A stretch of DNA of 64,000 bases from Methanothrix sp. (GCA_963682135.1 OY821645.1:1152001-1216000), one strand, 5' to 3'; shown: positions 4,524 through 11,031, counted from the stretch's first letter. Program-made: numbers and translations. The notes: generated by a model not told the origin, from the letters alone.

Positions 4524-4660
4524 TGGCGGAGGTATTCGGGGTCGGGCTCTCGGAAGTTGATGAGATGATCCTGAGTCGCTTTGAATTTGAATTTGAAGCT
4601 GAGGAGATGAGATCCAAAGAGAGTGGATTATGGCCTCAAGAGCTGTGGGTGGGGAGGTGA
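4524..4660 (+). pseudogene. 5'-truncated copy of the small 'LAEVFGVGL.EVDEMI' protein gene (left-end repeat, copy 1)
   Basis: Aligns at DNA and protein level with 9238-9332 (LAEVFGVGLSEVDEMI...SKESGLWP vs LAEVFGVGLPEVDEMI...SKESGVWP). No own start codon; the listed ORF begins inside tRNA-Phe. Confidence 0.75.
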
Positions 4661-4664
4661 TTCC

Positions 4665-4730
4665 TCATTTCCAGAACCGCCACCATCCCTTTCCTGATCT
4701 CTTCCTCGACCGACTTCAGGGCAAACTGAG
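4665..4730 (-). pseudogene. orphan C-terminal tag ...EEEI.RKGWWRFWK* (WW tag copy 1)
   Basis: Minus strand GAGGAAGAGATCAGGAAAGGGATGGTGGCGGTTCTGGAAATGA, very similar to 10320-10362. Confidence 0.7.
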
Positions 4731-4830
4731 ACCGCCTAGATTGAATCCTATGCATTTGCAGAAGGGTAAGATATTTTGCAGTTGAAGTGCGAGTGATATC
4801 GAGAACATCGTCTCAGGTAGGATACATGCG

Positions 4831-5124
4831 ATGAAGGTGATTTACAGGATTACTTATCCAAACGGCAAGATCTACGTTGGCAAAGATCTAACAGATAGCA
4901 TCAACTATTTTGGCAGTGCAGACAGCGGACTTATCGAGAGAGATTTTTCAGGTGAGCAACGACGCGACTTCACAATCCGAAAAGAGATAATTTGGGAATC
5001 GGACGCAGCATCCGACAGTGAAGTAAGTGCTAGAGAGATTGAATTCATTAGAGTTCTTCGATCGAACGACCCAGATATAGGATACAATCGGTGGCCGAGA
5101 CGCAACGTTGAAAAAAGTGCTTGA
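4831..5124 (+). CDS. small stand-alone GIY-YIG nuclease family protein
   Basis: VIYRITY...KIYVGK, conserved E (EIEFIR) and GYN motifs; 97 aa. Confidence 0.85.
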
Positions 5125-5359
5125 CCTATTAAATATTAAAATATCTATTCGTAATGATAATATTATTGTCTCACGAATTCTCTGATTTTGCTTTTCTTTC
5201 CGGCTCCGCAGGGATCGGGTACAGATCTATATATCTTGTCTCCATATCTCTTCAATTCAATCTGCTTCTTTCCTTCTTGCCGTGGTTTGGCAAGTATCAA
5301 GAGGATACGATGACGCGGAGACTGTGGATGGCTTGACATTTCCAGACTGTTGCCGCCTT

Positions 5360-6649
5360 TTATCTCATATATTTCTTAGCAAAGGTGGCAATAAAACCTG
5401 CCCACAAAAATGTTCCTACTATCGTCTCTGCCATTGCCACATATGTGTACAAATCAGATGTTGTCTTATAACCTGTAGTTCCTGGATTAATGATGGCGGC
5501 GATATATCCTGGAGCAATGGCAGTGACAAAGCTAATTTTAATACAGTCTAATAAACCTGCAGCAAATTCGTTAGCTCCGATTATTCGGACTATCCCTTCC
5601 CAATGCCAGAAAAAGAGGCCAAAAGCTAGTACTATTGCACCCCAGGAGATCATGAGCCTCTTTGGATGTACGCCATATCCGAAGATTCCTTGGATGAAGA
5701 TCCATTCAAATCCATCATACCAGAGATATCTCCATAGGGATCTTGGGAGAGACCTCCTGATAGGCCATACTTCAGTCTTCAGACAATCAACCAAGCTAAG
5801 CGGTGAATCCCATCTGATCCCTCTGATACCTTTCTGTATCCGCTTTGCCTCCATCTCCCGATAGAAGTGATATTCCTCCCCATCTCTGTCGCCTGCCCTT
5901 GCCAATACGTTCTTTGCCGTTCTGCACGCATCTTCTTGAGATTCCGCAAGGTTGAATACAGCCTTTCGGAATGTCACATGATTTCCTTCAAATCTGACTC
6001 CGCCAAAGGGGCCGAAGTAAGCATGGCCGTTTAACCTGGCTTCCATGAAAGAAGCATCCTGGCTGAATGTGGCTCCACTGAAGATGGTAAGCTCCATGAA
6101 CGTGGCTTTGGTGAAGCTGGCATTCTCGCTGAACTTGACATTTTTGAAGCTAACACTACTGCTGAATATGGCTTCCCTGAAGAAGGCATAACTGTTGAAC
6201 ATGGCTTTCTCAAATAAGGCAGGCCCTCTGAATGTGACCCCATTGAAAGAGGCATTATCGCCGCTGAATGTAGCTCCGTTGAAGTAAGCATTCTCGCTGA
6301 ACGCGGCTTTGTCGAAGAAGGCATTTCTGCTGAACATAGTTCCGCTGAAGTCGATTTTTTTTTGGAACAGGCATTTAATAAAATTGACATTTCTATCGAA
6401 CTTCGAATTTGTGATCGTTATCGAAGAGGATACAATTCTATATTTGGCGGGTTCATTTCTTATGTACTCGCCATCTGATTCGGCCATCAAGAATTTTCTA
6501 ACATAAAAATTATCATATGTAGGCGCAATGTCAAAGTTGCCTAGTACCCTAATGTGATCATAGTTGGCAGGCTCGCCTTTCTGGATCTTGTCTAATATCT
6601 CGCTGGCGGGAATTTCCGTTAGCTCTTTTAAGCAATTTTCTTCTGTCAT
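5360..6649 (-). CDS. pentapeptide-repeat protein with C-terminal membrane segments
   Basis: Many A.F..A.F repeats (Pentapeptide_3 style), then YREMEAKR, GYGVHP and hydrophobic helices resembling a 2TM channel-like tail. Confidence 0.85.
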   Translation of the reverse strand: MTEENCLKELTEIPASEILDKIQKGEPANYDHIRVLGNFDIAPTYDNFYVRKFLMAESDGEYIRNEPAKYRIVSSSITITNSKFDRNVNFIKCLFQKKIDFSGTMFSRNAFFDKAAFSENAYFNGATFSGDNASFNGVTFRGPALFEKAMFNSYAFFREAIFSSSVSFKNVKFSENASFTKATFMELTIFSGATFSQDASFMEARLNGHAYFGPFGGVRFEGNHVTFRKAVFNLAESQEDACRTAKNVLARAGDRDGEEYHFYREMEAKRIQKGIRGIRWDSPLSLVDCLKTEVWPIRRSLPRSLWRYLWYDGFEWIFIQGIFGYGVHPKRLMISWGAIVLAFGLFFWHWEGIVRIIGANEFAAGLLDCIKISFVTAIAPGYIAAIINPGTTGYKTTSDLYTYVAMAETIVGTFLWAGFIATFAKKYMR

Positions 6650-9395: not shown

Positions 9396-9829
9396 ATTTC
9401 CCTGCATCTTATACCATTGATACTTCTTTTATCTCTGTATTCAGTAAGTTCTTTAAATCTTTTTTTTGATTTGGAATTATCATAAAAGTAAACCAGAACA
9501 ATCAGCGTCAGTAATCCCAAGAAAATTGGCGTCGTACCTCTGGGCATATCTGGCACTTCAAGGATCAAGAAAATCCATATGCAAGCTTCAAAGAAAACAA
9601 ATGCATAAACATCAGTCAATCCTATATTTTGATTTTTATCTTCCAAATATATTGCGCATTATAGGTGATTGCATTCGTTTTGCTTCTTAGGCCTCTTCTT
9701 CCATTCCATGCCGCATTTTGTGACGAATTTTTTGAAATAACCATATTCTCCGCGGGGAGTCCAATCTTCTCCGCATGAGGTCCTGTATTCTTTTATCTCT
9801 CCATTTTCTGTCTGTAGTCGGACTACCAT
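9356..9829 (-). pseudogene. two-TM membrane protein ending KHWWQFWK, interrupted by an in-frame TAA
   Basis: MVVRLQTENGEIKEY...NECNHL*CAIYLEDK aligns with MVVRLQTAEGKIKEY...EECNHLDCAIYLAEK of 9843-10307. The stop is at 9659-9661; RBS GGAGG upstream. Confidence 0.85.
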
Positions 9830-9842
9830 CCTTGTATCCTCC

Positions 9843-10307
9843 TTACCGCCAGAATTGCCACCAGTGTTTAGCCTTCGTTCCTTCCTGATCTTCAGAGATT
9901 TGGGTAGCCTTGATACCGTTGATTGTGCTCTTGTCTTGGTATTCGGTTAGATTTTTGAATTGTCTTATCGCACGGATTTCCCAGATTAAAAAGGCAAATG
10001 CCGCTAGAGTATAGAATCCTGATAACATAAGATAAAACTCTTGTCGTTCAAATCCAAATAGAATTAGCATGATTGCTGCAAACGTAATAAAAATCATAAA
10101 TATCACGAGCCCATGTTTCTTATTTTTTTCTGCTAAATATATTGCACAATCCAAATGATTGCATTCTTCATTTTGCTTGGGCTTATTTTTCCATTCAATT
10201 CCACATTTAGAAACGTATTTTTCAATAGGATAGTCTCCGCCGCCTATAATCTCTACGGTCTCGTATTCCTTGATTTTTCCTTCTGCAGTCTGTAATCGCA
10301 CCACCAT
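9843..10307 (-). CDS. two-TM membrane protein with Cys-containing N-domain and C-terminal KHWWQFWR
   Basis: 154 aa, two hydrophobic helices, tandem paralog of 9356-9829. Confidence 0.8.
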   Translation of the reverse strand: MVVRLQTAEGKIKEYETVEIIGGGDYPIEKYVSKCGIEWKNKPKQNEECNHLDCAIYLAEKNKKHGLVIFMIFITFAAIMLILFGFERQEFYLMLSGFYTLAAFAFLIWEIRAIRQFKNLTEYQDKSTINGIKATQISEDQEGTKAKHWWQFWR

Positions 10308-10319
10308 TCTTTGCTCTCC

Positions 10320-10427
10320 TTATTTCCAGAACCGCCACCAGCCCTTTCTCTTGGCCTCCTCCTGGCTAGGTGGCAATGATAACGGGCTGATGCTTTGGGT
10401 GAGCTGCGCCACCTGGCCGCTATTCAT
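10320..10427 (-). CDS. 35-aa ORF or gene-end relic MNSGQVAQLTQSISPLSLPPSQEEAKRKGWWRFWK
   Basis: Open ATG-to-TAA frame overlapping the stop of the collapsed R-M copy (ATGA). A degenerate equivalent lies at 6650-6752. Confidence 0.5.
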   Translation of the reverse strand: MNSGQVAQLTQSISPLSLPPSQEEAKRKGWWRFWK

Positions 10428-10694
10428 GGCCTCATTTCCCTCCCTTCCACAATCCTGATCTCCTCTTTCGTCAGCCCGCAAAGCTCGTAGACCAGGACGT
10501 CTATCTGGCGATCGGTGGCCTCAATCTGGCGCGGGAGGGCGGTCTGCTTGTGAGGCATGCGGGCCACTTGGAGCTGCTTGTTAAGAGTAAGCATCTGATC
10601 CACCTTGGACTTTGTTTTAATGGCCGGATTTGTGGGACTCCTTATTGTTTTCAAACCTTTCCATAAGGTCCGCTATCTCTTCGTGTGCCGCCAA
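10424..10694 (-). pseudogene. second copy of the collapsed type IIG R-M gene (stop plus frameshift)
   Basis: MAAHEEIADLMERFENNKESHKSGH*NKVQ / VDQML...QIEATDRQIDVLVYELCGLTKEEIRIVEG; same deletion junction as copy 1. Confidence 0.8.
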
Positions 10695-11031
10695 TTCTCT
10701 GCTTCTCCATGCAATTATTCCCTGTTCAGGCGAAAAAGCTTGCGGAGGAAATTGAGACATTTCAATCTCGCCTTTTGTAATCCTCATAGCCTAACAGCAA
10801 GCAGTCTCTATCATGTCCGGAGCCACAGAGAGTGCAGCTATCCAAGATGCTACAATCGGCGGGCACAGAAAGCTCCACTTGGAGACTCCCTCTCGTTCTA
10901 TTACACCGGCCATAGCAAACTGTATATATAATCATGATAGATCAGAGCCAGTCGGAGGGAAAGGCTATTAGTGCATCACCCACCATTCTAAGAAAGCCCG
11001 GCCGAAGACACCTGTCCTGGCCGATGGAGCT

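Follow-up and report, generated by a model that had tools for sequence, protein, structure and literature searches.

In the minimal mobile elements of Neisseria, alternative cassettes lie between conserved flanks, no mobility genes are present, and the cassettes are thought to be exchanged via the homology of the flanks. The pdif modules of Acinetobacter plasmids are small, often encode toxin-antitoxin pairs, contain no recombinase of their own and are bounded by repeated sites, which are 28-bp XerC/D sites in inverted pairs. For the orphan arrays behind rhs and cdiA genes, homologous recombination between repeated fragments is the accepted mechanism. Orphan toxin-immunity arrays of this kind have been described (PMC3967940, PMC4927057), as have minimal mobile elements (for example PMC3082526 and PMC1797815) and R-M-linked defence clusters (PMC2701414), integron gene-cassette arrays were reported in Archaea (PMC9668308 / 10.1101/2022.02.06.479319), and tRNA genes are frequent targets of archaeal integrating elements (PMC4158269). 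Relatives of Methanothrix are major acetate-using methane producers, and the movement of their accessory genes is little known. Here, we analysed a stretch of 64,000 nucleotides from Methanothrix sp. (GCA_963682135.1 OY821645.1:1152001-1216000; the window, with positions counted from its first letter), in which an initial annotation had pointed out two units with conserved ends beside a tRNA-Phe gene. Within these ends, a stretch of ~200 bp from the 3' terminus of a type IIG restriction-modification (R-M) gene recurs as a repeat; we call it the tail, and in many relatives it separates small toxin-antitoxin gene cassettes. The main result is this family-wide tail-array architecture; the window itself is more modest and probably a decayed remnant of it.

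How do the tail arrays compare with the described systems? By analogy, they would seem to work most like the rhs/cdiA orphan arrays and the Neisseria minimal mobile elements. As in the rhs/cdiA arrays, a full-length gene is followed by displaced 3' fragments in the same direction with small gene modules between them, but there the repeated piece precedes the variable toxin-coding end of the same gene, whereas here the repeat is the conserved end and the variable parts are independent genes. The Neisseria elements are flanked by two different genes and hold one cassette at a time; here, both flanks are the tail of one gene, which allows stacking. The arrays share with integrons small cassettes in one direction, many of them toxin-antitoxin pairs, a repeated separator and a content that differs among relatives. 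Unlike integrons, they have no IntI-type integrase among the ORFs of the window island or the representative ORFs of the arrays and no attC hairpin, the repeat is a ~200-bp coding tail, the junctions do not fall at one position, and the array follows a gene's 3' end where an integron would have its attI site. No palindromic site of the kind that bounds pdif modules was seen in the tail. As in tRNA-linked defence islands, the strain-variable region next to the tRNA gathers R-M, Mrr, PIN, ParE, HEPN and MazF genes, but the accessible text on such islands does not report R-M tail repeats as separators (PMC4158269). We found no published description of R-M tails as cassette separators in the literature searched, which omits most subscription journals.

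Arrays of R-M gene tails

Using nhmmer with a profile made from the genome's own copies, we found 11 strong copies of the tail in the source genome, seven of which lie in one single-strand array (2,476,593-2,484,973). At the DNA level, the repeat is present in 45 of 59 genus genomes and, in a first search, in none of 12 genomes of other genera. With the 69-aa tail as a protein query, matches were obtained in 76 of 99 family genomes, often 4-16 in each, while other families of the class contained 1-3 per genome among the matches listed. The initial annotation had named copies of the ends elsewhere with different cargo as support for its reading, and for the R-M-derived part such copies exist in the genome, the genus and other genera of the family; we did not find the ends restricted to this place, nor relatives with identical cargo.

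We examined 27 loci, which form a non-random sample since they were picked where searches gave several matches. These loci hold 99 tail cores, and 24 of the 27 carry 2-8 same-strand tails separated by cassettes; the same layout was seen in four loci from other genera of the family. At 14 loci, an open reading frame (ORF) of more than 700 aa ends at the first tail and more tails stand behind it in the same direction. The first copy in relatives is the true 3' end of an R-M gene of 1038-1068 aa, which contains the domains HSDR_N, Eco57I/N6_Mtase and TaqI_C (Pfam, full-length relatives), and the other copies trail behind it. In 13 full-length R-M genes, the mean identity is 0.69-0.75 in the tail vs 0.15-0.53 in the hypervariable target recognition domain (TRD). 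Because this conserved island sits behind the hypervariable TRD, the tail is the only long homology at the end of the R-M gene. A frame-shifting 5-bp deletion is found, in several genomes, in 29 of 72 trailing copies vs none of the 14 copies attached to an R-M gene, which argues that the trailing copies are non-coding relics that are still spreading. As a separate observation, a hypervariable TRD between conserved 5' and 3' blocks would also permit swapping of specificity by recombination.

The cassettes between the tails have fixed lengths, namely 546-552 bp for ParDE, 735-763 bp for PIN with a 52-aa partner, 704-720 bp for PIN_2 with a 79-aa partner, 828-844 bp for MNT-HEPN and about 1117 bp for Mrr; other cassettes are MazF, a reversed MazE-PIN and a 253-bp hairpin. 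Their order and content vary by genome, even at one syntenic locus of the source genome and two relatives (G000, G045, G010). Each variable part is an independent gene that has its own start and begins behind the stop codon of the R-M gene. The repeat and the conserved R-M island share both limits, i.e. the start of the island and the stop codon. Where exactly a tail begins tracks the cassette upstream of it: after Mrr, the tails start at model positions 35, 65, 65, 66 and 68, after MNT-HEPN at 2, 2, 2, 2 and 4, and after ParDE mostly at 2. The final ~25 bp of the tail co-vary with the downstream cassette. Such cassette-typical limits would be expected from a circle with a partial tail that enters by a single crossover, or from crossovers inside tails, because either gives this pattern.

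Tails of the same locus are more alike (84.6% identity, 181 pairs) than tails of different loci (76.0%, 4639 pairs), a sign of gene conversion or in-place duplication. In one array (L027, on G059:C23), three cassettes and their tails form a 2.43-kb block that is present twice, at 98.9% identity, and the duplication ends at tails (oriented positions 5112-7539 and 9029-11458).

Could a dedicated recombinase have assembled these arrays? A site-specific cassette system, either integron-like or resembling Xer/dif modules, with its recombinase encoded elsewhere and its site inside the tail, would be in keeping with one-directional cassettes of fixed length and a repeated separator. Left junctions a few bases from the R-M stop codon and many right junctions within ~40 bp of the tail start point the same way, and tyrosine recombinases are encoded elsewhere in the source genome, with PF00589 matches only at 912, 1635 and 2807 kb. 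Against this stands the lack of a recombinase gene in or near the arrays examined, where Pfam searches of representative cassette ORFs gave only one TnpB (pair). The tail contains no inverted repeats of at least 8 nt, although no search aimed at an archaeal XerA site was made, and it folds no better than shuffled sequences (DNA z +1.28 and +0.23), with no attC-like or dif-like structure. Furthermore, the right junctions extend over ~100 bp (model about -30 to +68), and the repeat limits coincide with the limits of R-M conservation, as plain homology predicts. We regard a site-specific system as improbable.

The 253-bp hairpin cassette is without genes (L013:6715-6967, minus strand) and folds strongly as RNA (-86.4 kcal/mol, z -8.47). 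It is also present in L012, L031 and L052 and at ~2,484,980-2,485,230 of the source genome, and in some arrays it stands in tandem with tails. No Rfam family was found in two array loci nor for the hairpin itself, which could be an element resembling a miniature inverted-repeat transposable element (MITE) or a small RNA.

The cassettes of the seven-copy array in the source genome comprise PIN, PIN_2, ParE-like, HicA-like with a 354-aa ORF, reversed MazE-PIN and MNT-HEPN, and the array also holds a 533-aa ORF that resembles an insertion sequence (IS) transposase by eye only. The R-M gene at the head of this array is collapsed to an N-terminal piece, a hairpin element and a tail. Among bacterial relatives of the R-M gene, one of nine loci has a second tail copy and the other eight have a single tail. 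This one locus (L084, a metagenome-assembled genome of Pseudomonadota) has tails at 2632-2820 and, 1.5 kb downstream, at 4329-4484, with a 393-aa HTH/peptidase-like ORF and a 103-aa ORF between them.

The two units beside tRNA-Phe

In the window, unit 1 occupies 4521-7174 and unit 2 occupies 9235-10850. The repeats at their left and right ends, which the initial annotation had recognized, were found again in BLASTN searches of the whole genome: the right end is a single alignment of 494 columns at 83.2% identity (6658-7147 and 10331-10823, E 1e-141), with weaker similarity up to 7174 and 10850, and for the left end, 51 nt align at 90% (E 1e-12). Within the window, the repeats comprise 4521-4591 vs 9235-9305 (80%), 4662-4693 vs 10317-10348 (94%), 6696-6733 vs 10370-10407 (82%), 6760-6932 vs 10436-10608 (84%), 6927-7099 vs 10604-10776 (84%) and 7095-7174 vs 10771-10850 (78%). 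The middles are unrelated, as had been claimed: unit 1 carries a pentapeptide-repeat protein and a 97-aa ORF, unit 2 membrane-protein paralogues.

What are the shared ends made of? The right end is built of a type IIG R-M gene that has collapsed, its divergent promoter region and the first 13 codons of a ParD-like antitoxin; the initial annotation had already named these three parts, apart from the type IIG and ParD-like assignments. At the left end, a WWxFWK-tail membrane-protein gene converges on a small conserved gene. Judged from their composition, the shared ends are best described as remnants of ordinary genes and not as dedicated sites. The earlier proposal that the conserved ends act as recombination handles holds for one part: only the R-M tail of ~200-230 bp behaves as a general handle, while the remaining right end and the left end are gene remnants.

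The collapsed R-M genes, or stubs, lie on the minus strand at 6769-7017 (w1) and 10424-10694 (w2). Alignment and tblastn comparison with full-length relatives (G005, G009, G038) showed that both join the first ~28 codons of the R-M gene directly to the last ~55. Stub w1 is open over 82 codons (~28 N-terminal and ~55 C-terminal), with its tail core at 6768-6959, and w2 has a stop in the N-terminal part and an ORF of 76 aa (10424-10654), with its tail core at 10444-10633. The nhmmer tail scores are 163.9 bits for w1 and 161.0 bits for w2, and in w1 the conserved family tail is also matched by the PADLOC model REase_MTase_IIG (positions 1031-1061 of 1066, E 3e-4). No Pfam family was found in the proteins of 82 aa (w1) and 76 aa (w2), and the three enzyme domains of the full-length relatives are not present. 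The collapse of the R-M gene is old, because the identical N/C junction is found in w1, w2 and a more decayed stub of another species (G004:C69, ~69% identity). In all three loci of the source genome (G000), the R-M genes are reduced to stubs, and small cargo genes remain.

On the minus strand, the order is stub w2, a tag (the WWxFWK end of the membrane-protein gene), the membrane genes, the small gene (reversed), three more genes and ParDE (reversed), followed by stub w1, a tag remnant, the pentapeptide gene, the GIY-YIG-like 97-aa ORF (reversed), a tag, a small-gene remnant and tRNA-Phe. As read from its sequence, the window layout appears to be that of an array, i.e. tail, cargo, tail, cargo, except that the R-M genes have collapsed and the repeat reaches over the stub, the promoter and 13 ParD codons. 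We favour, with a probability of roughly 0.6, the reading that the two units are successive segments of a decayed structure at tRNA-Phe, once a type IIG R-M gene with trailing cassettes, and that homologous recombination between tails is the mechanism. The window pair is probably an old, decayed remnant of two such segments.

Recombination between tails

Under the favoured reading, tails would recombine by homology in unequal crossing-over. A circle consisting of a cassette and a partial tail could loop out and re-enter at another tail by a Campbell-type event, and the outcome would be that cassettes are stacked, duplicated, deleted and reordered without a dedicated recombinase. The window pair might have arisen by an unequal crossover or a Campbell-type entry within the stub region of ~500 bp. 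We infer homologous recombination as the mechanism because neither a recombinase, nor a hairpin, nor a tRNA repeat was found, because tails are more alike within arrays, and because the block duplicated at 98.9% ends at tails. The repeat family, the arrays with their varying content, the junctions typical of each cassette and the closer likeness of tails within an array are direct observations. The initial annotation had described the units as integron-like in outcome and possibly driven by homology, which fits the absence of a recombinase from the arrays and the varied cargo between the copies.

The window pair taken alone has another candidate origin. A segment of ~4.7 kb, from the small gene via the R-M stub to ParDE and beyond, could have been duplicated once in tandem, after which the second copy would have lost its distal part and the cargo would have decayed or been replaced; the ends would then not be handles at all. 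The start-to-start distances of 4714 bp between the left ends and 3676 bp between the right ends fit one long repeat unit with indels, and the left end is made up of an ordinary pair of convergent genes, which also exists elsewhere. The right-end homology ends at codon 13 of divergent 52-aa ORFs (starts 7137 and 10813), and this limit within ParD, at the island edge, looks like a breakpoint rather than a site in the sequence. The copies are 83% identical, w2 has a stop codon, and no rearranged forms appeared in the contigs of four runs. However, in 24 of the 27 examined loci and in most genus genomes, copies of the R-M tail enclose cargo that varies, and recombination between tails itself yields duplications that end at tails. 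In addition, the cargo of unit 1 between two tag remnants points to more recombination, beyond decay. For this pair, we consider a single duplication with subsequent decay possible, though doubtful as the explanation of the units. For the pair itself, a crossover or Campbell-type entry in the stub region and a plain duplication of ~4.7 kb with a deletion cannot be told apart.

Several observations weigh against homologous recombination between tails as the origin of the two units and of the arrays. In the window, the repeat is longer than the tail, since the N-terminal stub of the R-M gene, the promoter and 13 codons of ParD also belong to it, and at its right limit a gene is interrupted; a segmental duplication with a later deletion would give the same. 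As w1 and w2 are only 83% alike, any event must be old. Among the assembled contigs of four public runs (4000-11600), we found no rearranged joint or circle, although such contigs are uninformative on these forms; those of one run set end at 7043-7067 and 10720-10744, within the repeat. The tails do not cluster by cassette type, with identities of 0.770 within and 0.775 between types for the upstream cassette, and 0.783 vs 0.786 for the downstream one, and therefore leave no positive trace of a cassette and its tail moving jointly. In a nearest-neighbour tally, 69 of the 99 tails share neither neighbouring cassette with the closest tail. Between the source genome and close relatives, the cassettes share about 90-93% identity and carB shares 89-91%, which shows that descent is mostly vertical. 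The favoured reading does not account for the first cassette-tail junction of each type, and a recombinase may act in trans.

We also considered recent horizontal transfer of cassettes, which is not indicated, as the divergence of the cassettes is close to that of carB.

Tentatively, the favoured mechanism can be extended beyond this locus: the conserved R-M tail might offer a point of entry by homology alone, an 'attC by homology'. Cassettes looped out as circles with a partial tail could then re-enter at any R-M tail, and they would be stacked, shuffled and exchanged on a recombinase-free platform that extends across the R-M loci and the strains of Methanothrix and of its whole family, occasionally also in bacteria. 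The window pair would be a worn-out instance, in which the R-M genes collapsed and the cargo stayed. If true, this would show how archaea can assemble and rearrange defence islands and toxin-antitoxin clusters with no integrase. It would also account for assembly breaks at tail-array loci, and it would offer a search rule, i.e. a gene trailed by copies of its 3' end, by which such platforms could be found elsewhere.

The variable island and its borders

The island is bordered on the left by tRNA-Phe (4405-4477, plus strand), which follows tRNA-Val (4326-4400, plus strand; both ARAGORN) and carB (997-4215); on the right stands a Band_7/SPFH gene (11288-12136, Pfam). In the genome comparison, the homology of relatives ends at 4478-4488, at the end of tRNA-Phe, and in the closest relative (G015:C29) it is back from ~10951, where the conserved flank starts. 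Since homology stops at the tRNA-Phe end and resumes at ~10951, we define 4478-10950 as a variable island.

The islands at tRNA-Phe differ in defence content among relatives. In G015 there is another large R-M-like pair, G005 and G009 have a w-type R-M gene, full-length but broken, together with Mrr and ParDE, and G043 has a PIN pair, a 1341-aa protein and a 233-aa ORF. The window island is a hypervariable defence island, a hot spot, at tRNA-Phe. The 233-aa ORF of G043 (L062, G043:C33, 9049-9750) resembles dCTP deaminase by eye only and lies with PIN genes and an R-M tail fragment beside tRNA-Phe.

Does the position at a tRNA gene point to integration? Two integrative elements could have entered tRNA-Phe in tandem, lost their integrase and decayed to the two units, and indeed the island abuts tRNA-Phe and its content differs among relatives. 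Yet the 24-nt 3' end of tRNA-Phe occurs only once in the 64-kb window, with up to three mismatches allowed, so that there is no second tRNA-Phe end and no repeat at the far border. Neither an integrase nor a fragment of one, nor a transposase, was found among the ORFs of 4478-10950 (ORF scan with Pfam, PADLOC and NCBIfam models), in agreement with the initial annotation, and the repeated ends are unrelated to the tRNA. Insertion of two integrative elements is therefore very unlikely.

Tags, cargo and neighbouring genes

The tag sequence WWxFW[KR]-stop occurs seven times in a six-frame translation of the 3.04-Mb genome, and four of these occurrences are in the window (4665, 9356, 9843 and 10320). 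Tag A (4665-4715, minus strand) comprises the last 17 codons of a WWxFWK-tail membrane-protein gene and is 94% identical over 32 nt to tag 3 (10320-10348, minus strand), a gene-less remnant 75 bp downstream of the w2 stop codon. Tag B (about 6650-6700, minus strand) is a degenerate copy that marks the start of the right-end homology in unit 1. The claim that the tag belongs to the ends stands insofar as both units have it, but unit 1 holds two remnants with the cargo (~4716-6650) between them. Unit 2 has three tags, two of which are genuine ends of paralogous genes. An isolated further copy, at genome position 2061727-2061824, consists of a WW tag and the 75-bp spacer that elsewhere stands behind the R-M stop codon, without a tail or membrane gene.

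The paralogues of unit 2, all on the minus strand, are found at 9356-9646 (96 aa), 9659-9829 (a 56-aa N-terminal piece) and 9843-10307 (154 aa). Their family is present in 17 of 59 genus genomes and adjoins R-M tail repeats in G040 and G055. The small conserved gene, with the motif LAEVFGVGL, converges on the membrane-protein gene in unit 2 (9129-9395, plus strand). The unit 1 copy (4448-4660, plus strand) is similar to that of unit 2 only over 4521-4591 and is probably a remnant, because no more than this part is alike and the 5' part overlaps the tRNA. The LAEVFGVGL family counts 383 homologues, which are about 64-122 aa long and have neither a Pfam domain nor an informative name; an intact paralogue stands in an ordinary chromosomal context (genome 961070-961300), and the convergent pair of small gene and membrane gene is also found in G067:C69 and G012:C6. 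The arrangement kept in unit 2 suggests that the ancestral cargo was one or more WWxFWK-tail membrane genes converging on the small gene. Unit 1 would then have lost its membrane genes down to the tag, and its cargo between two tags suggests further recombination at the short tag repeats.

In place of membrane genes, unit 1 carries a pentapeptide-repeat protein of 429 aa (5360-6649, minus strand; Pentapeptide_3 E 1.5e-21) with a hydrophobic C-terminal part, and pieces homologous to it were found in 16 of 58 other genus genomes. The pentapeptide membrane protein of the initial annotation is retained, and its GIY-YIG nuclease is a weak candidate: the 97-aa ORF (4831-5124, plus strand) has a weak GIY-YIG-like match to PF01541 (E 0.038, profile positions 1-74 of 78) with 14.7 bits against a cut-off of 22.6, and no match in NCBIfam, PADLOC or solved structures. 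We dropped the idea that homing by a GIY-YIG nuclease drove the cargo of unit 1, as the match is below the threshold and relatives in the genus amount to 75 bp in one genome.

Downstream of the divergent promoter region of unit 1 (7018-7136), which is repeated in unit 2, a ParD-like antitoxin ORF of 52 aa (7137-7295, plus strand) ends where the ORF of a ParE/RelE-family toxin starts (7295-7543, plus strand; ParE_toxin E 3.3e-5, 24.8 bits vs a cut-off of 23, with RelE/YafQ models also matching). With a ParE/RelE-fold toxin after a small overlapping antitoxin, the predicted ParDE pair has the type II layout. Of the promoter-ParDE region, only 7018-7174 is repeated in unit 2, where a truncated ParD start (10813-10950, plus strand) has 13 homologous codons (10813-10850) and then runs into the island edge. 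The window toxin has 82 aa vs 98 aa for its homologue in G005, which has homologues of the pair, and a ParDE paralogue lies at genome 552855-553364.

Between ParDE and unit 2 are three genes on the minus strand: a putative winged-helix regulator (7573-8007; MarR_2 E 2.6e-4, below the cut-off), a 138-aa ORF (8080-8496) and a 71-aa ORF (8744-8959), the latter two without a family in Pfam, PADLOC or NCBIfam. Outside the island, the predicted tRNA-Asn of the window (29396-29487, ARAGORN) is 92 nt long compared with 73-77 nt for the other tRNAs and may contain an intron.

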